NCBI GenBank assembly: GCA_947253655.1
Contig: CAMYAE010000005.1
Location: 5,078 to 69,077, forward strand
From: an uncultured Bacteroidales bacterium
Lineage (GTDB): Bacteria > Bacteroidota > Bacteroidia > Bacteroidales > UBA932
Direction: 5' to 3'
DNA: 64,000 nt
Of the stretch, positions 6,315-23,026 are shown piece by piece; positions within the stretch are counted from its first letter, which is position 1; each line of letters begins with the position of its first letter. Under the pieces are notes generated by a model. It was not told where the DNA came from. It did no database searches and worked only from the letters and a program-made list of their open reading frames with translations. The position numbers and the translations under genes are program-made.

Positions 6315-6644
6315 ATGTTGACTATGGCGAAGAATACAATGGCTACTAAGTTGCCTCGGAAATTGGAGCAGAAGATGCAGATTGTAGGCGAGCAGATTAA
6401 GTTGGCTCGCTTGCGTAGAAATTTGAGTGTGGCTCAGGTGGCAGAACGGGCTACCTGTTCGCCGCTTACTGTGTCTCGTATTGAAAAAGGTATTCCTACT
6501 GTCGCGATAGGAATCTATTTGCGTGTATTGTATGCTTTGCAGCTCGAAGATGATATTTTATTGCTTGCCAAAGAAGATGAAATGGGTAGGGCGTTACAGG
6601 ATTTGAGTTTGAAAACAAGAGAACGAGCATCAAAAAAAGAATAG
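6315..6644 (+). CDS. hipB: XRE-family HTH regulator, HipB-like antitoxin component
   Basis: HTH_3 pattern IKLARLRRNLSVAQVAERATCSPLTVSRIEKG. Immediately upstream of HipA-homologous ORFs, 3-bp spacing. Confidence 0.7.
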   Translation: MLTMAKNTMATKLPRKLEQKMQIVGEQIKLARLRRNLSVAQVAERATCSPLTVSRIEKGIPTVAIGIYLRVLYALQLEDDILLLAKEDEMGRALQDLSLKTRERASKKE

Positions 6645-6647
6645 GCT

Positions 6648-6932
6648 ATGAGAGGGTTGTATGTATATGCCGATTTCGATTGGCTCAAAGAAGTGGAACT
6701 CATAGGCGAATTGGGCTATGAGTCTCTTCGAGGTGCAGACAGCTATAGCTTTACGTTCAATAATGAATGGTTAGGACAACACGGTGATCTGTTTTTGAGT
6801 GATGATTTGAACAATTATCCGGGACAGCAATACACACAGCCTGACAAGGACATATTCGGATGCTTTTCCGATGCCTTGCCGGATCGTTGGGGACGTACTT
6901 TGTTGTTAAGACGAGAACAAATCGCGGCATAG
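6648..6932 (+). CDS. hipS: HipS-like protein (HipA N-terminal subdomain as separate 94-aa ORF)
   Basis: HipA N-terminal couple_hipA-like sequence (...FSDALPDRWGRTLLLRRE). Ends at TAG, in the same frame as the downstream kinase ORF. Confidence 0.6.
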   Translation: MRGLYVYADFDWLKEVELIGELGYESLRGADSYSFTFNNEWLGQHGDLFLSDDLNNYPGQQYTQPDKDIFGCFSDALPDRWGRTLLLRREQIAA

Positions 6933-6956
6933 GAAGAAAATAGGCCGGTACGGAGA

Positions 6957-7931
6957 TTGTCGTCTTTCGATTTCTTAACCGGTATCGATGATTTCTTTCG
7001 GATGGGCGGGTTCCGTTTCAAGGAAGACCCTGATGACAAATTTATCAATGTAAGTGAATCACTGAAAATCCCCCCTCTGACAGATATCCGGGAGTTGATT
7101 GTTGCCAGTGCAGAGATTGAGAAAAGCGAAGAAAACAATATGCTCCCTGACAGGAAATGGATTGCACAGCTTGTGCAACCCGGAACATCATTGGGCGGTG
7201 CAAGACCTAAAGCAAATGTGATAGATGTAGATAAGACTCTTTATGTAGCCAAGTTCCCGTCTCGTCAGGATGATTATGATGTAGGACTTTGGGAGCATTT
7301 CAGCCACGTACTATCTATAAAAGCAGGAATAAATGCAGCTAAAACCAAAGTGCTGGCGGCAGGAGAAAAATATCATACACTGCTATCGCAACGCTTCGAC
7401 AGAACTCAAGAAGGAAAACTTATTCATTTTGCATCTGCTATGACCCTATTGGGGTTGAGTGATGGAGATAATGCAGCAAGTGGGCATGGCTATTTGGACA
7501 TTGTTGATTTTATAATTCGGAACTGCACAGATGTCGAGAAAAATCTGCAGGAACTCTACCGCCGTGTAGCCTTCAATATCTGTATAGGCAATAGTGACGA
7601 CCATTTCCGGAATCATGGTTTTCTTTTAAAGGCAAAGGGATGGACATTGTCTCCTGCATACGACATGAATCCCACTCTTAATGAGTATCAAAGCCTGCTA
7701 ATCTCTTCTACTTCCAACAAGGCAGATTTAAGTATCTTATTGGATGCTTGTGAGGAGTATATGCTCAACAGGAATAAGGCAGAGAAAATTGTATCAGAGG
7801 TGGTTGAAGCAGTGAAAGGATGGCGAGAATTGGCAACGCGATTAGGAATCTCCAAGAGAGAAATGGATATGTTTGCCGGAGTGTTGGATAGACGATATGA
7901 TAGTATGTTTAATTTCTCAATTCAAATTTGA
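6957..7931 (+). CDS. hipT: HipT-like Ser/Thr kinase (HipA C-terminal kinase core)
   Basis: HipA_C motifs: GTSLGGARPKANV, VAKFPSRQDDYDVGLWEHFSHVLSIKAG, NSDDHFRNHGFLL, LSPAYDMNP. Confidence 0.7.
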   Translation: MSSFDFLTGIDDFFRMGGFRFKEDPDDKFINVSESLKIPPLTDIRELIVASAEIEKSEENNMLPDRKWIAQLVQPGTSLGGARPKANVIDVDKTLYVAKFPSRQDDYDVGLWEHFSHVLSIKAGINAAKTKVLAAGEKYHTLLSQRFDRTQEGKLIHFASAMTLLGLSDGDNAASGHGYLDIVDFIIRNCTDVEKNLQELYRRVAFNICIGNSDDHFRNHGFLLKAKGWTLSPAYDMNPTLNEYQSLLISSTSNKADLSILLDACEEYMLNRNKAEKIVSEVVEAVKGWRELATRLGISKREMDMFAGVLDRRYDSMFNFSIQI

Positions 7932-8982: not shown

Positions 8983-9604
8983 GATACTGTTTCAAAAAGT
9001 GTGTCTGAGAAGAGCTAAAAAAGAAAGTCTACGGATTTCTTTGTGTTTGTAAACACAAAACAAGAACTCTAAAAAAACGTAGACTTATGTATTTCACAAA
9101 GGAACAACTTTCCGAGGTATTATGCAAGCATGCGGAAAGAGAAAATGGTATCCAGGACCTGCTGGAGATAATGATTGAGAGTATGCTGGTCGCTGAAAGG
9201 TCCGAATACCTGCGAGAGGATGCATTGCCTGGTAATAAGAGAAACGGGTACAGAATGGGTCACACCTACGGTCAGGGACGGGCTCTTATATTCCGTATAC
9301 CCCGATATAGGTATGGCAACTTTCATCCTCAGATACTGGCTGTCCTGCACAATCAGGAGGACGAATGCGAGTGCTTGGCCGGCACCCTGTATGGCAAGGG
9401 CCTGACTCAGGAGCAGGTTGGCGAGGTGTTCAACGACATCTATGGGGAACACTACGGCAAGGCAAGCATTTTGAGGATGCCGGATTACCTTCGGAAAGAT
9501 GTCCAGGAGTGGCTGGGCCGCAGTTTGGACGCTTACTCTCCGAATCCTGTTCATAGATTGTGTGCACATCAAGACACACCGCAAACAATAATCTATGAAA
9601 GGGA
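8983..9604 (+). mobile_element. IS256-family (mutator-type) element, ~0.6 kb internal-deletion derivative, copy A
   Basis: Left terminus GATACTGTTTCAAAAAGTGTGTCTGAG. Encodes a transposase N-terminal 150 aa (GYRMGHTYGQGRALIFRIPRYRYGNFHPQ...) which then breaks off. The right end ...AAGACACACCGCAAACAATAATC resembles the inverse of the left IR. Near-identical inverted copy at 18457-19058. Confidence 0.65.
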
Positions 9605-9632
9605 ATTTTTCTTTTATATGTCTGTTGAGTGA
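9087..9632 (+). pseudogene. IS256-family transposase, N-terminal fragment only
   Basis: Transposase_mut-like N-terminal region. Similarity to copy B stops after ...GRSLDAYSP. Confidence 0.6.
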
Positions 9633-9869
9633 AAGCATAAATTCGCTTGGTTCATACAAAAAATCATATTTCAAATCTTCATTTAATTTGTATTTCCCGT
9701 ATGAAACTCTGATGATTTTGTTCTCTGCAAGCATCCTATTCAAAAGCACAACAAGAGAACCTTCTGATATGTTTTTCATACCAGAACGCACCGCATTCAG
9801 CAGGTCTTTTCTTGTGAATAGCCCGTTCTGTTTCCGAGCAATATCTATTATTTGATTTACAGTTGTCAT
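9605..9869 (-). pseudogene. AbiEi-like (type IV TA antitoxin) N-terminal wHTH remnant, truncated by IS insertion
   Basis: MTTVNQIIDIARKQNGLFTRKDLLNAVRSG...IIRVSYGKYKL matches the AbiEi_4 N-terminal domain pattern. After ~88 aa the reading frame runs antisense into the IS256-like element. The 249-aa track ORF 9120..9869 is this chimera. Confidence 0.5.
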
Positions 9870-9989
9870 TGTTGTTCTTGAATTATACTTTATCCTGTTT
9901 TACAATTCCTACTACCTTGCTATTTTACCTATTTATATTATCACAATATTGTGAACTTATTCAGCAGTACGTATGCTTACCTTGATTCG

Positions 9990-10640
9990 CCCTGGGAAGC
10001 AACCTTCGAGCAGCTTCCTGCGTATGTCACAGCAGATCTCCCAGTCCCGCGAGGCGGAAACCAATCCCATCAGGACTGCTTCGGTATGGGAGTGTGCCAC
10101 CTTGATAGAAAGATATTTACGATGAATCGCCGTGTAGCAGTATTCTGGGATACCGGCCGATAGCCTTTAGCCTTAGGGAAGATGAGTGGCAGCACCACGG
10201 GTAAGATTTCCGGAGCAAACCTCTTCACCTGTCTGAACTACTGGATTGTCGCCTGCGATGGCTCTCCGGAGACCAACCCGCCCACTCTCGTGTGTCGAGA
10301 ACCCTTCCTCTGCCACCATTGTGTGCCATTGCAACGTCTTAACCTTCAAGCTTGACCAAGCTATCGCTGATATAAGCGGTATCTTCCTAGGCATCGAGGC
10401 TTCCGAAAGTCAGTCCAATGGTGTGAGCCGTGCCCACAGCAAGTCCGCACAGATCAAGATGGTCGAAGTTTCCGAAGCCACCGCAATCGTCCTCTCCTTG
10501 CCGACAACATTGCCAAAAAAGGCATGCCCAGCACTACGCTGCTCCGAAGATTTTCTTCCGCTACTACTACGTCAACTACTCCACCTGTGAGAAGTCAGGC
10601 ATTATGCTGGCGGAGACCACCTGGACCGCTGGTGAATAGA
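9990..10640 (+). pseudogene. Degraded paralogue (copy A) of the secreted-protein gene at 15540-16300; multiple frameshifts
   Basis: ~70% nucleotide identity with the reverse complement of 15540-16300. Conserved peptide segments (ATFEQLP / IEASE / KIFFRYYYVN...EKSG) lie in three different frames. Confidence 0.45.
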
Positions 10641-10767
10641 TCAAATCTATGTAGTTCTCCCGGAAATTCTAAACCAATCCCTTTGCAGCTTTAGCGATTA
10701 CAGAGTGATTCATTTATCATTTTCGTGACCTCACGAAAATGATCCAAATGCTCTTAAGTGAGTTGTT

Positions 10768-11634
10768 TTACCTATTTTTCGGAAGCTTTGCAGAAGCCTT
10801 CTCAATCTTCTTCTGTTCTGAGGCGACTCGACGTTCTAATTTTTTAATATCCTCGGCGGGCGGTAATTCTTCCGGACGAATACCTCGTTGGCCTAACATA
10901 TCACGCACACTTTTATTATTTTGCATGTGTTCACGAGTAATGGTTGGCTCACCATATAGATTCTTCCCCTTGACATTATAATTAGTCATCTCTGTTGCCA
11001 GGTTTTTGGCTGCTATGGTCAGGGTAGGGAGAAAGTCAGCCAAAGGCCGATTATCTTTGACACCGAGACGTTTTTTCATATCCTCGGTAGTATGTCCACC
11101 AAATAGAACTGCATCACCCTTCGAACGAATTCTGCCAAATCCCTTATCATCGACTCCTCGCTCATAGATATGTTGAGATAGTTGCTTCTCAGACGCACGA
11201 AGTCTATCCCGAGATTCAAGGCGTGCAATGTAGTTAAGGCGTTCTTCAATTAATTCAGCTTTACGTGTCTGAACAGCAAAATAACTTTGTGCAAAGGCTA
11301 TCTCTTCTTTCTTTGGATCGCCATTCTGAGCAATCAAGTAACATGCAAATCTTGTTAGCATGTAATCCTTGATGTCACGTTCCGCTCCTTTGGCAAGGGT
11401 TATCATTTTCGTGACTTCACGAAAATGATCGTCAACATTGATTCCCTGAGTATTACATGACTCAACAGCTCTATTGATGGCTGTCTGGAAATTCTCCCAT
11501 CTGGCATACCCGAGAACCTTTTGAAGATCTCTTGCAAACCAAACTTCGACTTGTTCATTTCCGTTGTCGCTTTCAATGTATGTGGCAATACTATCAAAAG
11601 CAGATTTGTATTGAATGATAATCTTTTTATCCAT
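10768..11634 (-). CDS. dinD: DNA-damage-inducible protein D-like (Bro-N / DinD family)
   Basis: WFARDLQKVLGYARWENFQTAINRAVESCNTQGINVDDHFREVTKMI...YLIAQNGDPKKEEIAFAQSYFAVQTR matches the DinD N-terminal pattern (RDLQ..LGY..W..F..AI.RA..SC). Confidence 0.7.
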   Translation of the reverse strand: MDKKIIIQYKSAFDSIATYIESDNGNEQVEVWFARDLQKVLGYARWENFQTAINRAVESCNTQGINVDDHFREVTKMITLAKGAERDIKDYMLTRFACYLIAQNGDPKKEEIAFAQSYFAVQTRKAELIEERLNYIARLESRDRLRASEKQLSQHIYERGVDDKGFGRIRSKGDAVLFGGHTTEDMKKRLGVKDNRPLADFLPTLTIAAKNLATEMTNYNVKGKNLYGEPTITREHMQNNKSVRDMLGQRGIRPEELPPAEDIKKLERRVASEQKKIEKASAKLPKNR

Positions 11635-11766
11635 TTCCTAAGTACGTTAATATGCGAATTTACTGATTTTTCCCATACCCTACAATGTTTAAACAGAAAT
11701 AATAGAAGACTTCTGCTGATATTGGCTACGGTAGCCAGTGACATCGTTGAGCAGGTTGAAACGTCC

Positions 11767-12619
11767 TTATATCTGACACGAATTCGAGCCGCCGCCAATG
11801 ATAGAGGCATCGTTAGGTACGCGAATATGGACCACGGCGGAATCACACGATGCGTCCGCGAGATAATTCCGAAGCATACACGGGTGACAACCCTTGCCTG
11901 ACATGGTCAGTTGGAGTTTGGCCTGCAGACGATACCGCCCCGGATACTCTTCACCGCTGGGAGAGCGGAACATCAGCTTGGTCTCGGAACACGTGGCGTC
12001 CAGTAGCAACCGCTTGAGGGCGTCAAGGTCCTTAACGTTGTCGAATTTGAGACAACGGTATCCGCTGTGCTCCACCAACTTGTCATTGACCCGCTCTGAG
12101 ACGACTCCAGAGAAGGTGCTATAGGCGAAGTAGGACGCCTTATAGTTGTGTCTCGTGTTCTTGTCCTCGATGGAGTGCAGTTTCTCGGTCTCGGCCTGAG
12201 CGTAGTGACCGGTGATGTAGTTCCAGTCATCTAGCAGCGTGCTGGACTTGTGGGAAGTCTTGTTGGTGGCTGGAGCCTTGAAGAAAGAGAAGGAGGGGAG
12301 CGGCTTTACCGGGACCGCGTTGCAGCCGAATGGACTGTAGCCAGCCTCAGGCAGGAGATAGAGGTCTTCGTTGATGGGCGATGAGCAGATCCTGTCCGTC
12401 TTTCTTCCAGTACAACTTTGCGAAGTCAAAGCAGTAGCCATCGGTGATGGCGTCGAACTGGTCTTTGTGTCGGGCGATTTCATCGGAGAGTTTCTGCTCC
12501 GCATGAAGTTTTTCCGTACAGGCGTGGAGGGTCTTGCTGCCATCGGCAAACGGATTCCTGTAGATGCCGCATTCGCGACCGGAGATTTTCATCACGATTC
12601 TGCCGGCAGTTCCTGCCAT
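11767..12619 (-). pseudogene. Hypothetical protein, apparently frameshifted (N-terminal 12619-12347 in one frame, C-terminal 12230-11767 in another)
   Basis: Protein-like N-terminus MAGTAGRIVMKISGRECGIYRNPFADG... and protein-like C-terminus ...LKFDNVKDLDALKRLLLD... are joined only by a frame change near 12340-12360. No family recognised. Confidence 0.35.
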
Positions 12620-12818
12620 TTGCTATTTTCCGATGCATACTTTGCGAAGGATTGATACTCAATAATATAGCAAAGTTGTGATACAAATGTGGTACATTGT
12701 TCAATGATAGCAAAAATTGATATTAATTGCTTGTTGAAATGTTCCAATATGCGAAGATACAAAAACATTTTTTCCACTGAAGATATTTAGGTAACTTTGC
12801 GTATCTAAGCGTTGTAAT

Positions 12819-13925
12819 ATGAACATTGATGTAAATAAACTCTTTGCTTCTAGCGATCTTGAATGCAAGGTCGTTGCCGGATGGACTATCGTTAATAAGC
12901 TTGCTGCACCTGACAAAAGTAAAAATGAAACTGGAGGGAATTTCTCAACATGTTACAAAGTTGAGAAGGATGGCGTGGTTGCCTTTATGAAGGTCCTTGA
13001 TTATGCCAAGATTATGATGCTATATGGTCAACTCACACCCCAGATAATGCAGCGTGCATCATCTGAATTTAATTATGAGAAGGCCCTTTCTGAATACTGT
13101 GTAAATAGACGTGTTTCTAAAGTCGTTCATTATATTGAGTCCGGGGATGTTCTGCTCGATGGTTATATAGTCAATGGTAGCGTCTCATTTATTATTTATG
13201 AGATGGCAGATGGTGATATTCGTAAGGTCCTTGATTTGTCCTCTAAAGCCGAATTGGCGGCAAGGATTAATTCTCTGTCAACAAAGTTGAATTCGCTCCA
13301 CGATGTGTCTGTTGGGTTAAGTCAACTTCATATGAATGATATTTCACATCAAGATATTAAGCCATCCAATATCCTCTCGATTAAAGGCGAATCCAAAATC
13401 GGAGATCTGGGTAGATCAATATGTTTTGATTCCAGTGTAAGTTGCCCTTATTCTGCTCTCTTTAATGGAGATAAAAATTATGCCGCCCCAGAATGCTATT
13501 ATCCGGACTTTGTAAGTAGTATAGAAAGCCTCTATCAGATTGATAATTATATGCTTGGCGGATTAATTGCTTACTATATAACTGGACTTACTTTCAATGC
13601 GTTGATGAACAATCATCTTCCTGACGTGCTTCAATTTTCTAAATTTCGGAGTATTCAGACACAAACATATTGCAATGTTTTGCCAGATATGATGAATGCA
13701 TACCAGAAAGCGCTTAAAGACTTCGAGAACGAAATTCCAATAGATGAGGTTAAAGTCGGGCTAGTGTCCCTTGTCGCATATCTGTGTAATCCAGACCCAA
13801 ACCGACGTGGTCACCCAAAGAATGTATTGGAGACATCCCGCACGCCAAATTATGATTTGCAGAGGACAATACAGGAACTTGATGTTTTGCAGAAGAAAGC
13901 TGAGTTGGCTTTAATTAAGAAATAG
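12819..13925 (+). CDS. Eukaryotic-like Ser/Thr protein kinase (stand-alone kinase domain, 368 aa)
   Basis: Complete ePK motif set: VAFMKV (VAxK), HQDIKPSNIL (catalytic loop), IGDLG (DFG-like), YAAPE, DNYMLGG. No TM segments. Low-GC gene. Confidence 0.8.
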   Translation: MNIDVNKLFASSDLECKVVAGWTIVNKLAAPDKSKNETGGNFSTCYKVEKDGVVAFMKVLDYAKIMMLYGQLTPQIMQRASSEFNYEKALSEYCVNRRVSKVVHYIESGDVLLDGYIVNGSVSFIIYEMADGDIRKVLDLSSKAELAARINSLSTKLNSLHDVSVGLSQLHMNDISHQDIKPSNILSIKGESKIGDLGRSICFDSSVSCPYSALFNGDKNYAAPECYYPDFVSSIESLYQIDNYMLGGLIAYYITGLTFNALMNNHLPDVLQFSKFRSIQTQTYCNVLPDMMNAYQKALKDFENEIPIDEVKVGLVSLVAYLCNPDPNRRGHPKNVLETSRTPNYDLQRTIQELDVLQKKAELALIKK

Positions 13926-13926
13926 T

Positions 13927-15453
13927 ATGGCATCATTTAAGGAGGATGAGAAAAGAAACGTAGTCCCTAACTGGAGAGATTACAATAAGACCGCTAAACT
14001 CGGTGAGTTTGGCAGTTCTCCTATTGCTACCCAACCTCTTGAACTGTTCCCTATAGACGAATATGTTGTAGCCTGGCAGAATAATAAGAGTGTATCTTTT
14101 GCTGGCGATTTACTGTCAGCCGCCATTTTGAATGGACATCAATCAAACCCATATGCAATAGAGGCCGCTAAATTTGTGATCGCTCACAAAGATGAGGCTA
14201 CGAATGTTCTTGTAAGGACTGCACAATCGGTGATTGCGACACCGGAAGAAAAGGCTGCTGCTGCTCAATTGACAGTCCCTCAAAAAATAGCTCAGATCCA
14301 AAATCAAGAAGAAGCTGTTCGAAATGAAATAAAGTTGCTTAAACAAAGCCGAGACTACTGCTGCTATAATCCGATTGCTTTTTGTGAAATGGCCAGGTGC
14401 TATGTTACACTGGGACAATTTGACAAGGCAAAAGAGGCTATGGAAGTGGCTCTCCATCTTGCACCAAATCATAGATACATTTGCCGTTCTGCCGCTCGTC
14501 TCTATCTTCACCTTATGGATGAGGACCGTGCAAGATATATTATTGCCAAGAATCCAGCATTACTCCACGATCCATGGCTTCTTGCATCAGAAATCGCTGT
14601 TAATACATTAATGGGCAGAACTTCTCGCCACATCAAAAAAGGTTCAGAGCTGATTGCTTCTCAGAATTACTCTCCTTTTAGCATTAGTGAACTTTCAAGC
14701 GCTATTGGTTCTGTTGAAATGATTAATGGCAACAAAAAGAAGTGTCGTTCATATTTCAAAACTGCTTTACAAAAGCCAAATGACAATAGCCTTGCGCAGG
14801 CAAGGTTCCTTCTTTCTAAAAACGCCGACTTGACTTTTGAATTCGGAGATGATATTGCTATTCCTAACGCTTTTGAAGCTGATGCGATTACCGCATATAT
14901 CTCAGACGATTACGCCAAATCATTAATTACAGCAGTTGATTGGATTGAAGATATGCCTTTTACAAGAAGGCCTGTCCAGTTCGCAGCAAATATTGCATAT
15001 TCATTCTTAAAGGACTATGGTACTGCCATCGATATTCTTGACCTGGGGCTGAAGTCTAATCCCAATAATCCTATGCTCTTGAATAATAAGGCGTATGCGT
15101 GTGCCTTATCTGGTAAAACACTTGAAGCGGAGCGAGCTATTCAGGAAGCCAAAAAGTTGCAGTTACCCCCGGATGCACAGGTCTGTCTGATTGCTACAGA
15201 AGGATTAACGGAATATAGAAAAGGCAATATCGATGAAGGGCGTAGATTATATACTGAAGCAATACAGTTAGCAAAGTCGTCTTTCCCTGATCCTCGCATT
15301 GCGAATACTGCTCTTTTGAATTTTACAAGAGAAGAAGCTCGGGCTGATGAAGCTTTTGATAAATCAGTTCTTGATGTCATAGACAAGATCCCCAATGATT
15401 GCAAGGAAACTGTTCAGTTAAAAATGGACATTAAAGCCGAAATTAAAGATTAG
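13927..15453 (+). CDS. TPR-like helical repeat protein (508 aa), translationally coupled to the kinase
   Basis: ATG lies 1 nt after the kinase TAG (AAATAGTATGGCA). Repeated amphipathic helix pairs (…LGQFDKAKEAMEVALHLAPNHRY…, …LGLKSNPNNPMLLNNKAYA…). Confidence 0.7.
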   Translation: MASFKEDEKRNVVPNWRDYNKTAKLGEFGSSPIATQPLELFPIDEYVVAWQNNKSVSFAGDLLSAAILNGHQSNPYAIEAAKFVIAHKDEATNVLVRTAQSVIATPEEKAAAAQLTVPQKIAQIQNQEEAVRNEIKLLKQSRDYCCYNPIAFCEMARCYVTLGQFDKAKEAMEVALHLAPNHRYICRSAARLYLHLMDEDRARYIIAKNPALLHDPWLLASEIAVNTLMGRTSRHIKKGSELIASQNYSPFSISELSSAIGSVEMINGNKKKCRSYFKTALQKPNDNSLAQARFLLSKNADLTFEFGDDIAIPNAFEADAITAYISDDYAKSLITAVDWIEDMPFTRRPVQFAANIAYSFLKDYGTAIDILDLGLKSNPNNPMLLNNKAYACALSGKTLEAERAIQEAKKLQLPPDAQVCLIATEGLTEYRKGNIDEGRRLYTEAIQLAKSSFPDPRIANTALLNFTREEARADEAFDKSVLDVIDKIPNDCKETVQLKMDIKAEIKD

Positions 15454-15460
15454 AAAAATA

Positions 15461-15497
15461 CGCCCGCCTCGATTCGCATCGGAGCGGGTGTTTTCGA
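15461..15497 (+). terminator. Weak putative rho-independent terminator after the kinase-TPR operon
   Basis: GCCCGC-N16-GCGGGT hairpin (one G-U pair) followed by GTTTTCG. Confidence 0.3.
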
Positions 15498-15539
15498 TAA
15501 GAATACCCTTGCGGGAAGGTGGAATCCACGCTGAACTAC

Positions 15540-16272
15540 ATCAGCTTGCCCTGGGCGAGGATTTCTCCTGACTTTTCGCCGGTTGCGGTGTTGACGAAGA
15601 AGTACTTGAAGAAGACCTTCGGATCTCCGGCAGAAGGAGTGCCACACTTGGCCTCGTAGCTGGACTTGATGTCGATAGCATCGGTGGACGGAGTGACAGG
15701 TGCACCAAATGTGGCAGCTTTGCCGTAAGCACGAGTGATACCGTTGCCCTGAGGTTCGGAAGCCTCGATGACGAGCTTGAGGTTGGTGGTGTCAGCTGGA
15801 GCGCTGGAGAGAGTAAACGTAATAGTACTTGAACTGATGACAATGACAGCGGGTGCAGGTGCCTCGACACCGGTGAGAGTAGGAGGGTTGGCCATTACGG
15901 AACCGCCACAGTAGACTACCCAGTAGTTGAGCCTCATAATGAGGTTCGCACCGGAAATCTTGCTTTTGGTGCCGAGAACCGACTTGCCTTTCTGGGTATT
16001 GTGCATTGGTGAGACCCTTCCAGCCCTGCGAGAGCTGATTGAAGGTTGCCTTGACGGAAGACGGTACCGCCGATGCCGAAGGAGTGATTTCTTGAAGTAG
16101 AGAGCCCTGAAATCACTGAGAAAGCACACAGCTGTGCTGCTAAGGCTGCGGATAAAGACAGGAATCTCGACACCTCTACTGTATTACCAAGCGGAGCGAG
16201 TTTTGAAAGACCGGAGGTTTGTCGATCGGAGTGAAACGGAGAGCGCCAAAATTCCGGTTCCGCTCTGCCCAT
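15540..16272 (-). pseudogene. Secreted-protein paralogue copy B (signal-peptide-like N-terminus). The coding sequence is spread over 3 frames, so it is either frameshifted or carries sequencing errors.
   Basis: N-terminus RFLSLSAALAAQLCAFSVISG (signal peptide-like). C-terminal 130 aa are intact in one frame (...IEASEPQGNGITRAYGK...KVFFKYFFVNTATGEKSGEILAQGKLM). A middle segment (KATFNQLSQGWKGL) is only in a third frame. Confidence 0.45.
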
Positions 16273-16331
16273 TAAGGGGCGTCTTCCGGCATCGCAGTGG
16301 ATGCAAAGGTGCTGGACACCTTGCCTGTAGT

Positions 16332-18083
16332 TTAAATATTCCCTTGGTATATAACCTTTACGTTAGGATGTGCAAGTAGTTTCTGCATGTAAGACCCTTC
16401 AAAGCCGTCCATAGTACTGATGGCTTCAAAATTCCCAAGGATTATAAGTTTACATTTAGCCCTTGATAACGCGACATTCAACTTATTAGGATTGTACAAA
16501 AAATCAGATAGTTCGTTGATGTAATCTATATTGCCTGATGTCAAAGAAATAATAATAACCTCTCTTTCTTGACCTTGCAATTTATCTATAGTATCAACTA
16601 CTATTCCTCTCTTGTATTCATCCGCTATCATATCATCCTTGAATAGTTTTCTGCGTATTTCACTGCATTGAGCTCTAAAGGGTGCTAAGACGCCTATTCT
16701 GTTACAACTAAATCCAGCAGAGAAATACTCTCTTATAATAGCGTCAACTTCAACAGCTTCGCACGTTGATGATTGACGACCATTGCCTGAGATGTTCTTT
16801 GCAATTATGGAATAATCTCCTGATAGGTATTCACTATCGATATCTATAGATAGCCTTTTATCTGGATTGTATGATTTAAGTTTACCATCATAGAATAGGT
16901 CTGATACAACTTCACAGATAGGACCATTCATTCTGAATGATGTGTCAATCATCATGCAGTTCTTCTCACTCAACATATAGTTGAATACGGATTGCTTCAG
17001 TGGTTCGACAATGTTTTCAGCCTTGATTATAGGTGTTAACTGCTTATGATCACCGCATAATATGAGTTTCTTGCAATTGAAAGCGGCCATCATTGCCACC
17101 GGGATACTCATCTGTCCAGATTCATCAATTATAACTGTATCAAACTTAATCCCCTCGGCTCTGGATGAGTAGAAAGTATAAGGAGTCATTCCCATTACAA
17201 GGTTTGTCAACTCATTTACACGACCAACGTCAAGATAACAAGATATATTATTAATGGTCAAGGTTTTATCACCTGATACAAAAGAAAGACCAGCCGTCTG
17301 AAATGGATAACCGACTTTTAATATACCTTCGACATGACTAGGAAGGATTTCCCCGATTTTTACGAGAGCGTTGTTGATGGCCATATAGTTTGGTCCAGTA
17401 ATACATACTCTTTCACCAAGTTCGAAAGCCAAAATTATTGCAATAAGAGCTATGACAAACGATTTTCCTGTACCTGGAGGGCCTTGTAGCATATAGTAAT
17501 CTTTGGCGGCAAATGCTCTCGCGATAGCCTCTCTTTGTGACTCCAAAAGAGTCATGCCCAATTCCTGCTCTACTGTCTGGATATGTTGTTTCCAGACATC
17601 AACATCTACATCAAAAACCACATCTTGCTTCGATGGAATGATACTGCTATTCCAGAATGGGGAATCTTCACTCGGAAGATCTAACATAAATCGTCTGTAC
17701 GATGAAGCGAGGAAGTTTCCATATTGCTTTTCTACAACAACTTCTTTTCCATCATCAAAGCAGTGCATTGGTATGCCAGCTCTACCCCAGAATCCTATTA
17801 TTAGATTTTCCTCGTTATCATAGTCCCAGATTGTAGCCTCGTAGCCGTTGACCAAAACAGCATCTCCTACACCTAGTGATGAGTGGTTTGTATCAACTAT
17901 AAAACGACATAATCCATAATCGCCAGAAGACTTGGAATAATTTCTGTCGTAACGTAGGCCAACAATCGCTTTCCTTGCCTTGACTTTTTCTTTAATCGAA
18001 AGCTTTCTGTATGAATCTATCTCCCTCTGTGATTGAGCATGCTCCTCGTCAATGAATTGCTGTAAATCTTTTCTTGTAATCAT
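16332..18083 (-). CDS. Upf1-like SF1 helicase (AAA_11/AAA_12, DNA2/NAM7 type) with ~190-aa unknown N-terminal domain
   Basis: GPPGTGKS (motif I), VIIDESGQ (II), TSFRMNGPICEVVSDLFYDG (IV/V region), VDTIDKLQGQEREVIIISL, NVALSRAKCKLIILG (VI). Confidence 0.8.
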   Translation of the reverse strand: MITRKDLQQFIDEEHAQSQREIDSYRKLSIKEKVKARKAIVGLRYDRNYSKSSGDYGLCRFIVDTNHSSLGVGDAVLVNGYEATIWDYDNEENLIIGFWGRAGIPMHCFDDGKEVVVEKQYGNFLASSYRRFMLDLPSEDSPFWNSSIIPSKQDVVFDVDVDVWKQHIQTVEQELGMTLLESQREAIARAFAAKDYYMLQGPPGTGKSFVIALIAIILAFELGERVCITGPNYMAINNALVKIGEILPSHVEGILKVGYPFQTAGLSFVSGDKTLTINNISCYLDVGRVNELTNLVMGMTPYTFYSSRAEGIKFDTVIIDESGQMSIPVAMMAAFNCKKLILCGDHKQLTPIIKAENIVEPLKQSVFNYMLSEKNCMMIDTSFRMNGPICEVVSDLFYDGKLKSYNPDKRLSIDIDSEYLSGDYSIIAKNISGNGRQSSTCEAVEVDAIIREYFSAGFSCNRIGVLAPFRAQCSEIRRKLFKDDMIADEYKRGIVVDTIDKLQGQEREVIIISLTSGNIDYINELSDFLYNPNKLNVALSRAKCKLIILGNFEAISTMDGFEGSYMQKLLAHPNVKVIYQGNI

Positions 18084-18456
18084 CTCTTTATGCGAAATGC
18101 TTGTTCTTCTAGAATGTGGTTAATACAATCTTAACACAAAATTTTCCCGTCTTAGAGTTCGTACATATCCTCTACTGGCAGATATTCTCCGTATCTATCG
18201 CAATGTACATCTCTACATCGTTGAATTCGTGTGACATAACTTAGTGTGTGTTTGATTTCTACAAATATAACGATTTGTGCTAACTTTACATAAGCGTATC
18301 ATACGCTATGGCAAAGATTTATGTAGCAAGAAGTTGGAGTAATGCTTTATATAAAGATATGGATCAGCGACTTCGTGACGCTAGCCATTAGGTCTATGAT
18401 TTCCGCAATCATCCCTTACGGCAAGCAGCACATAGAACGTCTCGTATCCACGCTCC

Positions 18457-19058
18457 GTTTGCGGTGTATATTGATATGCACACAATCTATGAACAGGATC
18501 GGAGAGTAAGCGTCCAAACTGCGGCCCAGCCACTCCTGGACGTCTTTCCGAAGGTAATCCGGCATCCTCAAAATGCTTGCCTTGCCGTAGTGTTCCCCAT
18601 AGATGTCATTGAACACCTCGCCGACCTGCTCCTGAGTCAGTCCCTTGCTGTACAGAGTGCCGGCCAAGCGTTCGCATTCGTCCTCCTGATTGCGCAGGAC
18701 CGCCAGTATCTGAGGATGAAAGTTGCCATACCTGTCTCGGGGTATACGGAATGTAAGAGTCCGTCCCTAACCGTAGGTGTGCCCCATTCTGTACCCGTTC
18801 CCCTTATTACCAGACACGGTGTCCTCACGCGTGTATTCGCACCTTTCAGCGACCATCATACTCTCAATCATTATCTCCAGCAGGTCCTGTAGACCATTTT
18901 CTCTTTCCGCATGCTTGCATAATACCTCGGAAAGTTGTTCCTTTGTGAAATACATAAGTCTACGTTTTTTTAGAGTTCTTGTTTTGTGTTTACAAATCTA
19001 AAGAAATCCGTAGACTTTCTTTTTATCTCATCTCAGACACACTTTTTGAAACAGTATC
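18457..19058 (-). mobile_element. IS256-family ~0.6 kb deletion derivative, copy B (inverted relative to copy A)
   Basis: The reverse complement is near-identical to 8983-9597: same terminal GATACTGTTTCAAAAAGTGTGTCTGAG and the same internal end point ...CACCGCAAAC. Carries transposase N-terminal fragment ORFs 18767..18955 and 18416..18667 (frameshifted). Confidence 0.65.
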
Positions 19059-19652: not shown

Positions 19653-21383
19653 TTATTTGAGTTCTGCGGATTCGATGGTCGCCTGACCGCAGAAGGAGGC
19701 TTCTAGCATCTCGAGGGAGGTGGTACCTTTGTCGAATGCGAACCATATGTACGGTGCATCATCGGAGCGATACATCTTGCCGATGTATTCTTCGAAATTG
19801 GCGTTAACGAAAGCCTTGATGTCGCCGAAAGGGGTAACACGAAAGAAGTCGCATTTGCCGTTATAGACGCTTATGAGGTCGGTGCGGAACTTGTCGTGGA
19901 TGCGGTGCTTGACGCTCTCGTTGTCAGAGTTGGTGACGTATGAAGCGAGAACGAACAGGAAGTTGATATTGTACGCCTGAAGAACCAGTGTGTCTCGGTC
20001 AAACGGACGGTTCTTGAAGTGGGCGTTTGCCGGTATGATCTGGTTGTTCTGAGACAGACGATCCTCGGAGTAGCAGGCGTGCCCATCGGTCAGGTCTTCA
20101 GCCTTGACATATCCGCGCACGAAGAAGTTCGGCGTCAAGTTATAGCCCTCTGTAAGGGGGTCACGATAGCGGACGTTCTCAATTATCCATTGCTCCTCAT
20201 TTTTCAATTCACCGGGAAGCTTGTTGAAGATGTTGATGTTGAGCTGGATTATGTTCTTGGCATAGGTGAACTGTTTGTAGATGGATTTCTCGTCCAGGTC
20301 GGAGCCGTAGAAGTAGTACTTACTGTCGCCTATGTAGTAGATTTGGCTGTTGTCCACAAGGGATTTGTCCTTGTAGATGTGGTCGATTTCCTTGCCGTCT
20401 TCGTTCTCCTTGAGGTCGGAGAATATGTCGTCACCGATGAGACAGTCAACCATATCTTCGAACACTCGGTCAAATTTGCTGGCGAGGAGGGCTTCCTCCC
20501 GACTCTTGCCGGACCGTATGGTCTCTGACTTTTCGAAGAAGGCGTAGAGCAGTTTCCAGAGGAGAACCAGTTCGTCCTTGAAGTATTTGCAACGGATGGA
20601 GCGGAGCAGTTTGGTGCCTCGCTTTGACTCTATCATTGCATCGACCTTGGCAGGCTTAATCAGCTCGTAGTTCAGGTTGGCTCGAACGGGGAAGAAGTAG
20701 CGCAGCCGCAGATATTCCAGGACCGAGTAGAAAATGACTATGAGTTCCTCGTCATAGTTGATTGCCTTTTTCTTGTTGCGGAATTCAGCATAGAACGGCT
20801 CGTTATCTTGAATGATTGGCTGTACTGTGCTTATGGTCTTTCCCCAATGAATCTTGTTGTTGCCGCTGGTGTTTATTATGGAGATGTAGGTGAAAAGGTT
20901 CGCATGCTCCTTGTGGAATGCGACGAGGGAGAGGATGGTGTCGAGAAGTGTCTGGTTATCCTCGCCTTTGTCCGAATTCACTCTGCGGATGTCCGTGCGC
21001 CTGATGATTTCACTTTTTGGATGACGGACGGAATACTTATCGATTGCTCGATAGATCCAGGTGGAAAGGCCGAACAGCACTCGGTCAAGACCATCTTCTT
21101 TGAGAGGGTTGTGGTCCGGGGAGATTTCAATGACGTCTTCGACTGAATACTTCCCGAAGGCGATTTCCAGCAGGTTTTTCTCTTTGTCTATCTTGCCGCT
21201 TCCTTCAAACAGGAAGACCTTCGGCAGGATGAATATCGTGTCGTTTATCTTCGGAGAATAGATATAGCCTACATACGTCAGGATTCCCTCGATCTTGTCC
21301 CTTGACGTGTACACGTAGGACTCAAGGCCGTAGCTCTCCAGCAGTTCTGGGCTGTATGACTGTCCTTCGAAGAGAATTCTCAT
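19653..21383 (-). CDS. McrC-like / LlaJI.R2-like endonuclease subunit (PD-(D/E)xK)
   Basis: Third gene of the dcm-mcrB operon, 10-bp spacing. C-terminal region with IDHIYKDK...YYIGDSKYY resembling the McrC D...(D/E)xK nuclease motif. Confidence 0.6.
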   Translation of the reverse strand: MRILFEGQSYSPELLESYGLESYVYTSRDKIEGILTYVGYIYSPKINDTIFILPKVFLFEGSGKIDKEKNLLEIAFGKYSVEDVIEISPDHNPLKEDGLDRVLFGLSTWIYRAIDKYSVRHPKSEIIRRTDIRRVNSDKGEDNQTLLDTILSLVAFHKEHANLFTYISIINTSGNNKIHWGKTISTVQPIIQDNEPFYAEFRNKKKAINYDEELIVIFYSVLEYLRLRYFFPVRANLNYELIKPAKVDAMIESKRGTKLLRSIRCKYFKDELVLLWKLLYAFFEKSETIRSGKSREEALLASKFDRVFEDMVDCLIGDDIFSDLKENEDGKEIDHIYKDKSLVDNSQIYYIGDSKYYFYGSDLDEKSIYKQFTYAKNIIQLNINIFNKLPGELKNEEQWIIENVRYRDPLTEGYNLTPNFFVRGYVKAEDLTDGHACYSEDRLSQNNQIIPANAHFKNRPFDRDTLVLQAYNINFLFVLASYVTNSDNESVKHRIHDKFRTDLISVYNGKCDFFRVTPFGDIKAFVNANFEEYIGKMYRSDDAPYIWFAFDKGTTSLEMLEASFCGQATIESAELK

Positions 21384-21393
21384 ACCGCTGTCG

Positions 21394-23022
21394 TTATGCT
21401 TCCTCTACCTCGATATAAGCCATAAATCCCTGCAAACGCTTGTTGGTGTCGTCATTGGTAGGGAAGAGGCTGTTGAATGTGAATTCGGCATCGCTGTCGT
21501 TCTTGTCCTTGAAGAAAGAGCCGGACTTCTCATATTCCTTGCATACCTCGCTCCAGAGGTAGAACATAACTTTGCTCTTGAACTCTTCAACATCAACATC
21601 CTTCTTGATGAAGAAGTTGCCCATCTGTTTGTCCTCGGAATCTGAAAGTTTATGGATGCATTCGTTGGCCTTATCGAGGAATGAAGCCCATTTGTACATC
21701 TTGTCTCCGATTGTGATCTTGAACTGAGATTTAGTATTAGAAGAATCAATCGGCACATATTCCCAAGCCCAGCGACGCTTGAATGCACTGTCCATAGGGA
21801 AGAGGGACTGGTCTGAAGTGTTCATTGTAGCCAGTATGTGAAAATTCTTCGGGAGACAAAGTTTCCCGTTATCAATCCCTTCGCTTCCGTCAACTTCATC
21901 AATATCAAGTCTTCTTAATTCTACTTCAAGATAATCCTTGAGGTCGGTGTCAGCATCGATAGGGTATTCTGAATATCCATCATACCTATCGAGTAGTTGG
22001 AAAAGGTCTCCAAATATCTGTGCACAATTCCCTCTGTTAATCTCTTCAATAACAAGATATACAGGGATATCTGGATTTTTCCAAGCTTTACAATATGCCT
22101 TTGTGAACGCTTGAGGAATAAATTCGTATGTCAAAGTGTCTGCAACCTTCTTCGGCTTATATGCTCCCACAAATGTGGAATAGTCGGAATCCGGATGGAA
22201 TGTTGTCCTGAAATCAATACCAGGATTATTGTTAATGTATTCTGCGACAGAGTGGGATTTGCCACACCCAGGTGCACCAAAGTATATCTTTTGCAGTGCC
22301 ACAGCTATTGTCGGCGCAGGAGTGTTTGCTGGCGGATTGGCAATTGCAAACAAAGTTCTAATATCGTCATCGTCGATTTCAGGAGCCAAAGAAACGAAAG
22401 TGAGTCCAAGAACTTGACAATAGTTGTCGAAATCTTGTTGCAATGGAAGAATTTGAGTGGCATAATCTGCCGTCAACAATGAATTAAGCTCATCTCTAAC
22501 GGACATATAGAAATTAGCCTCCGTGAGTTTGTGAGAACGCAAAAGCCAAAGAACCAGAGCTGTTTTATGCAAAGGTGCCGATATGTATGCATCCAAATTT
22601 TTAATCAGATTCGGGTTCTCGAAAAGTTTTCCCGATTGGACGTGCATTATAGGATTAGACCCTCTGCGGGGGAAAACAAGTTGCTGTCCTCCGTTTTTGG
22701 TTGATTCCCTAACAACATTGACAGAATAAAAATTGCTTCCTACGGCATAATCTGAATTATGGTCAAGAGGGTAGTAAAAATTAGATGTGTATGAAGTATT
22801 ATTTACAGAAACAACCTTGCCCACATTCTCAATATATGCAGCGGCATCATCTTTATCTTTGACATTGCATTCACGTCCAAATTTTTTGTAGAACATATCG
22901 AGTGCGATGGAGTAACGAATTGCACTCACTCTTTGAGTTGCCCCCTGAGCAAGAGGATCTGTGCTTAAAGTCGACAGTTTCTTATAAGCGGCAAGTATTG
23001 TCTCTTTTGATAAAAAAGCCAT
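21394..23022 (-). CDS. McrB-family AAA+ GTPase restriction subunit (LlaJI.R1 / BsuMI-like) with ~230-aa N-terminal DNA-recognition region
   Basis: Walker A YFGAPGCGKSH. McrB signature LVIEEINRGNCAQIFGDLFQLLDR. ILATMNTSDQSLFPMDSAFKRRWAWEY matches the McrB NTD.R..D.AL.RRF motif. Confidence 0.8.
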   Translation of the reverse strand: MAFLSKETILAAYKKLSTLSTDPLAQGATQRVSAIRYSIALDMFYKKFGRECNVKDKDDAAAYIENVGKVVSVNNTSYTSNFYYPLDHNSDYAVGSNFYSVNVVRESTKNGGQQLVFPRRGSNPIMHVQSGKLFENPNLIKNLDAYISAPLHKTALVLWLLRSHKLTEANFYMSVRDELNSLLTADYATQILPLQQDFDNYCQVLGLTFVSLAPEIDDDDIRTLFAIANPPANTPAPTIAVALQKIYFGAPGCGKSHSVAEYINNNPGIDFRTTFHPDSDYSTFVGAYKPKKVADTLTYEFIPQAFTKAYCKAWKNPDIPVYLVIEEINRGNCAQIFGDLFQLLDRYDGYSEYPIDADTDLKDYLEVELRRLDIDEVDGSEGIDNGKLCLPKNFHILATMNTSDQSLFPMDSAFKRRWAWEYVPIDSSNTKSQFKITIGDKMYKWASFLDKANECIHKLSDSEDKQMGNFFIKKDVDVEEFKSKVMFYLWSEVCKEYEKSGSFFKDKNDSDAEFTFNSLFPTNDDTNKRLQGFMAYIEVEEA

Positions 23023-23026
23023 AATG

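Follow-up and report, generated by a model that had tools for sequence, protein, structure and literature searches.

A kinase-TPR gene pair from an uncultured Bacteroidales bacterium is a member of the catalogued phage defence candidate PDC-M71

Two adjacent genes at the locus match PADLOC candidate PDC-M71

A stretch of 64,000 nt (hereafter, the window) from an uncultured Bacteroidales bacterium (GTDB lineage UBA932; assembly GCA_947253655.1, contig CAMYAE010000005.1, positions 5,078 to 69,077) carries two adjacent genes on the forward strand. The first (12819..13925) encodes a 368-aa protein kinase and the second (13927..15453) encodes a 508-aa protein that is predicted to be cytoplasmic and to form an all-helical superhelix of tetratricopeptide repeats (TPR). 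Both open reading frames (ORFs) are intact and lie where a previous sequence-only reading of this DNA had placed them. That reading had also concluded that the architecture maps to no named system, and had put the pair forward as the best candidate for a new kinase-based system. Searches against PADLOC-DB v2.0.0 showed, however, that the kinase is matched by PDC-M71A (E=2.8e-106, 353.9 bits, residues 6-366 against profile positions 4-350 of 352) and the TPR protein by the PDC-M71B model PDLC04781 (E=3.2e-163, residues 1-505 against profile positions 1-508 of 515), with a second PDC-M71B model, PDLC04782, matching at E=2.2e-36. Each protein matches its hidden Markov model (HMM) over the full length, and gene A directly precedes gene B on one strand, which makes the pair a member of PDC-M71; in gene order and adjacency it shows no structural difference from the candidate. 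An NCBIfam scan found no model near its cut-off.

PDC-M71 belongs to a series of "145 untested phage defence candidates" that were identified by guilt-by-embedding, and the cassette carries the entry "Assign as candidate PDC-M71" in Table S8 of the source study, where it was counted 31 times against a cut-off of 30; six embedded systems were confirmed in the same study (Payne et al. 2024, bioRxiv 10.1101/2024.01.29.577857). The pair is therefore already known as an uncharacterised candidate and does not represent a new discovery. The PADLOC search that the sequence-only reading had itself proposed thus identified a named candidate, and its claims of an undescribed system and of novelty do not stand.

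The two genes are separated by a single nucleotide. The junction TAG-T-ATG (13923..13929, +) could be read directly in the sequence, where the letters AAG AAA TAG T ATG GCA give the kinase stop codon, a 1-nt spacer and the TPR start codon, as the sequence-only reading had described. The GC content of the pair is 0.402, compared to 0.444 for the window, and is equally low in only 4.7% of same-size windows; the AT-richness reported for the pair relative to its flanks is real but modest. Approximately 20 nt 5' of the kinase ATG, TAACTTTG (12792..12799, +) represents a candidate Bacteroidota-type -7 promoter element. The -7 consensus of Bacteroides promoters is TAnnTTTG, and we take TAACTTTG to be a -7 element by this consensus. 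A scan for sigma-70 promoters and terminators found no enrichment over shuffled sequences. At the other end of the pair, the TPR stop codon is followed after only about 80 nt by the next ORF, which is encoded on the opposite strand.

The kinase retains the residues needed for catalysis

Pkinase (PF00069) was the only Pfam domain found in the kinase (54.7 bits compared to a cut-off of 31.7, E=1.3e-14, residues 78-338). No PASTA, FHA or any second domain was found by Pfam, and no transmembrane segment was found in either protein (in the kinase and the TPR protein, 19-residue Kyte-Doolittle means reach at most 1.35 and 0.91, respectively). Domain content and hydropathy therefore agree with the earlier description of a kinase without a transmembrane, PASTA, FHA or other sensor domain, and the HMM searches suggested at that time returned Pkinase for the first protein and TPR families for the second.

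Residue conservation was analyzed across 70 aligned pairs, which have a mean pairwise identity of 0.39 for the kinase and 0.31 for the TPR protein. All 70 kinases keep K58, E87, H177, Q178, D179, K181, P182, N184, D196 and G198, as well as G217, D242, G247 and R330. Among these are K58, the ATP-anchoring lysine of strand beta3 in the VAFMK motif (12978..12992, +); six residues of the catalytic loop HQDIKPSN (13347..13370, +), including the catalytic D179, N184 and K181, the last of which represents the Ser/Thr-type signature of HQDxKPSN; the Mg-binding D196, along with G198, of the DFG-equivalent GDLG motif (13401..13412, +); and D242 and G247 of the subdomain IX motif DNYMLGG (13542..13562, +). 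The APE motif that ends the activation segment (13485..13493, +) has E225 in 69 and P224 in 60 of the 70 kinases; it is preceded by G217-D218, at the site of the usual G-T/S of Ser/Thr kinases, with D218 found in 63. Every motif quoted in the sequence-only reading was thus present and conserved in the homologues, and its view that the kinase is probably active can be upheld. The conservation of the catalytic residues indicates that the kinase is under strong purifying selection for catalysis and is almost certainly catalytically active. The HQD motif replaces HRD, with Q178 in place of the usual Arg, which places the protein in the non-RD class; non-RD kinases are generally independent of activation-loop phosphorylation.

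The AlphaFold2 model of the kinase (predicted local distance difference test, pLDDT, of 84.9; predicted template modelling score of 0.85) consists of a single bilobal Hanks-type domain, flanked by a short N-terminal extension and a C-terminal helix. With a Pkinase match above the gathering score, the set of catalytic residues and the bilobal fold, the protein belongs to the Hanks-type kinase superfamily. Foldseek comparison with PDB structures matched the model to CLK1, CDK2, IRAK4 and ACVR1 (probability 1.00, identity of at most 20%, template modelling score of approximately 0.6-0.7), and the best PDB sequence matches were the eukaryotic MAP-kinase-family proteins MAP2K5 and ERK5, at about 1e-10. 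Neither of these PDB searches, by sequence or by fold, found a close solved relative or an informative bacterial structure. Among close relatives, hot spots of variability in the kinase were found at aa 62-76, at aa 269-283 and in the activation loop (aa 201-215).

The TPR protein combines conserved and fast-evolving regions

Several TPR families were found in the second protein by Pfam (among them TPR_2 at E=1.7e-16). The AlphaFold model of this protein (pLDDT 88.7) is all-alpha and comprises 28 helices, which bears out the earlier description of an all-helical, TPR-like partner. At the level of the generic fold, the model resembles superhelices that bind proteins or peptides, and eukaryotic Cdc27 was the best structural match. 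No helix-turn-helix (HTH) or other DNA-binding domain, no STAND NTPase domain and no phosphatase domain was found in this protein by Pfam.

Conservation among the 70 TPR proteins is concentrated at a small number of sites. The N-terminal peptide RNVVPNWR (13954..13977, +), which includes R10, P14, W16 and R17, is conserved, with P14 in all 70 proteins, R10 in 68 and W16 in 67; this peptide is possibly a kinase-docking or pseudosubstrate peptide. The most conserved core (14569..14802, +) spans the motifs DPW (aa 215-217) and PNDNSLAQA (aa 284-292), in which D215, P216 and W217 are found in 70/70 proteins, P284 in 69/70 and both N287 and Q291 in 68/70. In addition, Y442 is invariant, and N386-N387 and A423 are near-invariant.

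Variability was assessed in 21 relatives that are 68-83% identical to the window protein, by entropy and with 2000 shuffles. Variable positions in the TPR protein were found to be clustered (the observed value was reached in 0 of 2000 shuffles), with the highest entropy in three stretches of the C-terminal repeats (aa 403-417, 443-457 and 472-486), while aa 140-300 represent the least variable part of the protein among these close relatives. The fast-evolving C-terminal repeats (aa ~403-508; 15133..15450, +), which contain these hot spots, could therefore represent a candidate specificity or sensor surface.

The two genes form a strictly paired and widespread family

A pattern scan in which each GTDB species was represented by one genome identified at least 323 loci, the best 80 of which were examined for pairing. 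Among the matches listed, the closest species-representative loci were found in Bacteroidales metagenome-assembled genomes, with 71-72% identity. The best 80 loci represent Bacteroidota, Gamma- and Alphaproteobacteria, Acidobacteriota, Actinomycetota, Planctomycetota, Nitrospirota, Gemmatimonadota, Armatimonadota, Chlorobiota, Spirochaetota and Bacillota; with Deinococcota, which is added by a plasmid, the total comes to approximately 12 phyla.

A TPR homologue was found immediately 3' of the kinase gene, on the same strand, at all 80 genome loci and at all four viral-contig loci, and the same order of kinase then TPR was found on plasmids and on an integrative element of the Bacteroides caccae type. 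Adjacency, the co-conservation of which the sequence-only reading had proposed to examine, is thus kept in 84 of 84 loci across ~12 phyla. When junctions were determined from the longest ORFs at 75 loci, 16 loci had a junction of -4 nt and 14 one of -1 nt, while 29 fell between 0 and +5 nt; the annotated genes on an Arthrobacter and a Deinococcus plasmid overlap by 4 nt. These tight junctions across loci indicate that coupled expression is a conserved trait of the family rather than an accident of the window; the view of the two genes as an obligate unit is therefore borne out. Kinase and TPR pairwise identities were correlated (Pearson r=0.86 over the 70 aligned pairs), which is what joint inheritance and transfer of the two genes would produce. 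When all ORFs of at least 70 aa were clustered, no other family was found in more than 6 of 75 loci; with no third recurrent component, the cassette is self-contained.

Larger searches showed that the family is considerably more common than its catalogue entry suggests. A word-indexed search (E<=1e-3) found approximately 500 kinase clusters at 90% identity; the best 120 of these encode kinase domains only and are ~365 aa long (almost all 331-418 aa), except for two that are truncated to ~240 aa. When 1.84 billion representatives were searched exhaustively with a profile of the TPR alignment, 2223 clusters at 50% identity were found (E<=1e-30), the best 150 representatives of which matched end to end at lengths of 493-556 aa, except for four fragments of 335-394 aa. 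No kinase-TPR or other fusion was found among the best 120 kinase clusters or the best 150 TPR representatives. Given 2223 clusters at 50% identity, the family is much larger than the 31 counts in the source study would suggest and, with at least 323 species-representative loci, PDC-M71 is not a marginal candidate.

The pair is found among restriction-modification and mobile-element genes

A flank survey covered 150 ORFs within two genes of the pair at 54 loci. Phage_integrase was the most frequent Pfam family (6), followed by N6_Mtase/HsdM (4) and Methylase_S (4); further DNA methylases, TIR (2), Eco57I (2), HpaII (1) and RhuM (1) were also found. At locus L017, the genes for AbiEi, HsdM, HsdS, the kinase, the TPR protein and HsdR follow one another on one strand, which represents a textbook embedding in a type I restriction-modification (R-M) operon, and L008 shows the order HsdR, an unassigned gene, HsdM, kinase and TPR. 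Embedding of this kind led to the original recognition of the candidate. In a member of the Paludibacteraceae (L004), homologues of the two restriction subunits of the window's LlaJI-type system are located directly 3' of the pair (12674-16899), which points to a common island ancestry within Bacteroidales. PDC-M26A and a DUF2357/PDDEXK nuclease protein were found near the pair at L005, and a PifA-like protein was found near the pair in a complete Pedobacter genome (L034). The sequence-only reading had placed the pair among defence and mobile-element genes, and this is seen both in the window and at other loci.

The pair was also found on three plasmids from three phyla. On the Arthrobacter plasmid, a PDDEXK nuclease, IS30 and MobF lie beside the pair. 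On a plasmid of Deinococcus sp. NW-56 (L082), the pair follows a two-component system, and Pycsar genes and insertion sequence (IS) elements are nearby; a Pycsar effector-family gene and an adenylate/guanylate cyclase gene (13673-16001) are located among the IS elements, approximately 3-5 kb from the pair. The B. caccae-type integrative element (L087-L092) carries as cargo a kinase-TPR pair that is 36% identical to the window pair and also has a 1-nt junction; other genes of the element encode DUF3871, HU-HIG, two serine recombinases and a BT4734-like primase with DUF3987. The TPR protein of this element is listed in 1450 blocks of the collection, and the element is very common in human-gut Bacteroides. 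One version of PDC-M71 is therefore abundant in these organisms on an integrative element.

The association with mobile elements could also indicate that the pair is a toxin-antitoxin (TA)-like module for addiction or stabilisation of these elements, in which the kinase would act as a growth-arresting toxin and the TPR protein as its antidote, with no dedicated phage sensing. The strict two-gene unit with translational coupling, the presence of the pair as cargo of plasmids and of an element with serine recombinases, and the high frequency of integrases in the flanks would all fit such a role; kinase toxins also have precedents in HipA and DS-6/HipAD, and the conserved TPR groove discussed below would fit a conserved partner. 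However, type II TA components are typically much smaller than either of these proteins, Pfam found no HTH or other DNA-binding domain in the presumed antitoxin, and the toxin gene would come first. Moreover, the co-directional placement of the pair inside type I R-M operons and beside other defence systems is the signature on which defence predictions are made. While we consider an addiction module unlikely, though a serious alternative, TA and abortive-infection roles are not mutually exclusive, and this explanation overlaps with the one that we favour below.

The pair is essentially absent from phage genomes. No full-length match was found in 50,697 phage records, and among 2.9 million IMG/VR viral contigs only 4 full-length matches were found, so that the pair occurs occasionally on proviral contigs. 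In PHROGs, the kinase matched a generic Ser/Thr-kinase family only, and no family was found for the TPR protein. A phage origin of the pair was consequently rejected. The same data bear on the idea that the pair represents cargo for counter-defence or competition between elements, with a kinase that disables host defences or rival elements by phosphorylation and a TPR protein that serves as targeting adaptor. Plasmids, the integrative element and the occasional proviral contig are places where such cargo could be expected, but the scarcity of the pair in phage and viral records argues against this role, and an anti-restriction role could not easily explain why the pair lies co-directionally within type I R-M operons of the host. 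We therefore regard counter-defence as very improbable.

A proposed role in abortive infection

Overall, the best explanation for these observations, which we consider to be about evenly balanced between right and wrong, is that the pair is an anti-phage module of the abortive-infection type, in which the kinase would be the effector and the TPR protein would be both regulator and sensor. The cassette consists of two genes, is self-contained and moves horizontally; it encodes a catalytically competent, cytoplasmic non-RD Hanks-type kinase, co-expressed with a TPR superhelix of ~510 aa. The conserved N-terminal and central part of the TPR protein would bind and control the kinase, and its faster-evolving C-terminal repeats would detect a cue of infection that is probably a protein or peptide of the phage. 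Recognition would change this control, leading to release or activation of the kinase, which could then phosphorylate host or phage proteins and thereby halt infection. The defence function, the binding of the partners, the sensing partner, the direction of regulation and the substrates are all features that we infer.

Several lines of evidence favour this proposal. They include the strict pairing with its tight junctions, the lack of a recurrent third gene, the invariant catalytic residues, the correlated divergence of the two proteins, their rigid architecture, and the binding-type fold and C-terminal variability of the TPR protein. Apart from the R-M embeddings described above, the window itself contains a HipA locus, an AbiEi remnant, PDC-S13, a superfamily 1 (SF1) helicase and LlaJI-type R-M genes near the pair, and kinase-based defence has precedents in Stk2 and PD-T4-6, for both of which PADLOC models exist. 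Prior expectations also contribute to our assessment, since, of eight other PADLOC candidates tested in a cold-seep study that did not include PDC-M71, four protected E. coli, and since embedded systems were confirmed in the source study of the PDC series.

On the other hand, several observations weigh against a defence role or against parts of the mechanism. The evidence from genomic context consists of counts and examples and is suggestive rather than statistical, and at some loci the pair lies beside ordinary genes, for example those for an FAD oxidase at L029 and a TonB receptor at L054. A literature search for PDC-M71 and for kinase-TPR defence found no characterisation and, in the library searched, no main text naming PDC-M71. 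Binding between the kinase and the TPR protein is deduced from co-inheritance only, and neither the kinase-first gene order nor the absence of a DNA-binding domain says anything about whether the TPR protein would activate or inhibit the kinase. In addition, the motifs on the concave face of the TPR superhelix (DPW, PNDNSLAQA, NN and ATxGL) are highly conserved across phyla and thus fit a conserved ligand at least as well as diverse phage proteins; the groove would fit a ligand such as the kinase, or the TPR protein's own N-terminal peptide RNVxPNWR.

Some of these observations are also compatible with a signalling pair without a role in defence, which could act in host physiology or on the behaviour of a mobile element or R-M system (e.g., transfer, restriction alleviation or stress response). 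The ordinary neighbours at L029 and L054, the position of the pair behind a two-component system on the Deinococcus plasmid, the lack of a published characterisation and the description of the PDCs as untested by their own authors would be in line with such a role, as would the precedent of PknG-like proteins, where a Hanks kinase and TPRs together regulate metabolism. Against such a role, the pair occurs patchily across ~12 phyla, in neighbourhoods that vary and share no partner or target gene, a pattern typical of mobile accessory cassettes rather than of core regulators; GC content is below average in the window, the pair is repeatedly adjacent to R-M, PifA, TIR and PDC genes, and no recurrent link to a metabolic operon was found. 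A signalling role outside defence therefore appears rather doubtful.

A more far-reaching version of the abortive-infection proposal is that PDC-M71 represents a widespread form of two-component immunity (at least 2000 clusters at 50% identity, ~12 phyla), in which a dedicated TPR receptor senses a phage protein or peptide and switches on a separate non-RD kinase that aborts infection by phosphorylating targets of the host or the phage. We put this forward tentatively, as it is somewhat likelier to be wrong than right. If true, this combination of a receptor and a non-RD kinase would recall innate-immune signalling in eukaryotes (IRAK and RIPK, plant receptor kinases) or the PKR/P58IPK pair, and the mechanism would be distinct from that of the single-gene kinases Stk2 and PD-T4-6. 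Even if only a defence role is true, a design of sensor plus kinase would join the few known kinase-based defences and would provide a tractable model for the control of a bacterial Hanks kinase by a repeat-protein partner. The breadth of the family, its rigid pairing and its invariant non-RD kinase make the pair a worthwhile experimental target, although it is already catalogued, with the HQD loop of the kinase and the N-terminal peptide that is conserved in the TPR protein as concrete targets for mutagenesis.

Comparison with known kinase and TPR systems

Similar to Stk2 and PD-T4-6, PDC-M71 has a Hanks-type Ser/Thr kinase as presumed anti-phage effector. Stk2 of Staphylococcus epidermidis is an abortive-infection kinase, reportedly described by Depardieu and colleagues in 2016, and the logic proposed here for the pair would be similar, except for the presence of a separate sensor. 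Stk2 and PD-T4-6 are single-gene systems, whereas the PDC-M71 kinase is always found with a separate TPR partner and has an invariant HQD / G-D signature. Membership in either system was rejected; the Stk2 profile matched only at residues 154-259 (profile positions 217-319 of 500, E=2.1e-8), and the best PD-T4-6 model matched residues 122-249 only (E=3.9e-9), so that these profiles cover just some 100 residues of the catalytic core. The matches of the kinase to mad6, PD-T4-6, MkoA and Stk2 are all partial, with E values of 1e-8 to 1e-10, and are no better than expected for a generic kinase fold.

The HipA-family systems (HipBA, HipBST and DS-6/HipAD) are likewise encoded by two genes, one for a toxic Ser/Thr kinase and one for a partner that controls it, and DS-6/HipAD, a HipA-family pair validated by DefensePredictor, protects against phage. 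These kinases, however, belong to a different fold family and are controlled by a small HTH antitoxin, while the partner here is a 508-aa TPR protein. The kinase did not match HipA_C (PF07804) at E<=1, while the HipA protein of the window, used as positive control, matched at E=8.7e-45; the kinase was thus not assigned to HipA or HipBST. With proteins of 368 and 508 aa and a partner without a DNA-binding domain, the pair is also not a canonical type II TA system. BREX PglW was rejected as well, given a single-domain kinase of 368 aa and the absence of BREX genes among the window neighbours; the 25 PADLOC families listed for the kinase do not include PglW. The sequence-only reading had correctly set the pair apart from Stk2, HipA and PglW.

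PknG, a conserved actinobacterial housekeeping regulator, consists of a Hanks kinase fused to a TPR domain, and such kinase-TPR modules regulate metabolism. The pair resembles PknG in combining a Hanks kinase with a TPR module that regulates the kinase or docks partners, but PknG is one polypeptide, whereas the PDC-M71 modules are encoded by separate, mobile genes. PknG was not among the best 60 PDB sequence matches of the kinase. Among systems with TPR proteins, Avs/STAND proteins have C-terminal TPRs, but their STAND NTPase domain has no counterpart in the TPR protein. Assignment to the RRNPP receptors (AimR, NprR, Rap and PrgX) was rejected on the basis that the TPR protein has no HTH or phosphatase output and that there is no room for a downstream propeptide gene. 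MAD6 of MADS shares a kinase-like domain with the pair, as does MkoA of type I Mokosh, and the cores of both matched weakly (mad6 at E=8.9e-10, MkoA at E=1.3e-8); a MADS system could be rejected, as the NCBIfam MAD6 model scored 29.3 bits compared to a cut-off of 460. Across the loci, neither Mokosh nor MADS genes travel with the pair. By analogy, the pair would functionally be closest to the kinase-effector abortive-infection systems, while architecturally it resembles an unfused PknG-like combination.

The accessory island in the window

The pair is located in an accessory island that adjoins mnmE (25819-27288). Approximately 10 metagenome contigs carry the same island with identical pair proteins. 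The sequence-only reading had named DinD, a helicase, a TA system and an McrBC-type R-M system among the neighbours, which is largely right, with Bro-N/PDC-S13 as the DinD-like protein, an SF1 helicase, a HipA-type TA locus and an AAA_5 (McrB/LlaJI-type) R-M system with Dcm. The first of these, the Bro-N/DinD-like gene PDC-S13 (10768-11634, -), itself one of the untested PADLOC candidates, is matched by its PADLOC model over the full length (E=2.1e-117) and has a strong match to phrog_8036, a family without assigned function. A 260-aa ORF without any family match (11767-12549, -) is located upstream of PDC-S13 and is divergent from the kinase operon. Directly 3' of the TPR gene, a 197-aa ORF (15536-16129, -) with a GC content of 0.54 has no match in Pfam, PADLOC or PHROGs. 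A degraded and inverted paralogous fragment of this ORF was found on the far side of the segment (~10387-10640, +), based on repeat I2 and on the peptides KIFFRYYYVN..EKSG and KVFFKYFFVN..EKSG.

The next gene encodes a stand-alone SF1 helicase of 583 aa with AAA_11/AAA_12 domains (16332-18083, -) and has a GC content of 0.384, which is low like that of the kinase-TPR pair. This helicase matches the helicase part of the Mokosh profiles MkoA (E=1.3e-54) and MkoC (5e-33), and the kinase and helicase together could thus be seen as a split type I MkoA, as the kinase matches MkoA at positions 87-264 of 1112 (E=1.3e-8) and the helicase at positions 786-1088. The kinase match is, however, at the level of the generic protein-kinase fold, the helicase is on the opposite strand and past an intervening ORF, and it occurs with the pair at 0 independent loci, only in contigs of the same island. 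No phospholipase D (PLD) nuclease partner for the helicase, such as MkoB, was found among the window neighbours. A split Mokosh-like system is therefore so improbable as to be effectively refuted, and type I Mokosh was rejected on the partial match to the MkoA core, the lack of an MkoB PLD protein and the missing linkage of the helicase at other loci. Outside this same island, neither the helicase, PDC-S13 nor the two unannotated flanking ORFs were found with the pair.

Two remnants of the same IS256-like element (Transposase_mut) bracket this part of the island. The left remnant (9018..9586, +; inverted repeats I1/I3) and the right one (18457..19024, -) are in inverted orientation and 94% complementary. 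The two inverted IS copies reported by the sequence-only reading are therefore only partly right: the repeat is present, but as degenerate remnants of ~570 nt rather than as intact elements; both arms represent the 5' part of the transposase gene, and the match to Transposase_mut was made on the equivalent gene of the variant contig L083. The remnants could mediate inversion of the segment between them (9587-18456), and the IS bracket is not a feature of the kinase-TPR family. The left remnant truncates an AbiEi-type gene, resulting in a chimeric ORF (9120-9869) of which the first ~96 aa match AbiEi. In L083, an IstB_IS21 fragment occupies this place.

Beyond the right remnant, a LlaJI-type R-M system (19653-24241, -) consists of a Dcm C5-methylase, an AAA_5 McrB-like subunit and a 576-aa partner, which has no Pfam match and a weak match to a restriction-endonuclease PHROG. 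On the other side of the segment, an HTH-HipA TA locus (6315-7931, +) includes a 324-aa HipA part (6957-7931; HipA_C at E=8.7e-45). The hipA gene in the window is split into a 94-aa ORF (6648-6932) and the 324-aa ORF in the same frame, consistent with a single in-frame stop codon. Among contigs with the same island, L084 shows the same split, while L083 and L085 encode an intact 427-aa HipA. A further observation concerns the 260-aa ORF upstream of PDC-S13, as a fragment with 48% identity to its product was found at L001 (4924-5289), approximately 5 kb upstream of the pair.

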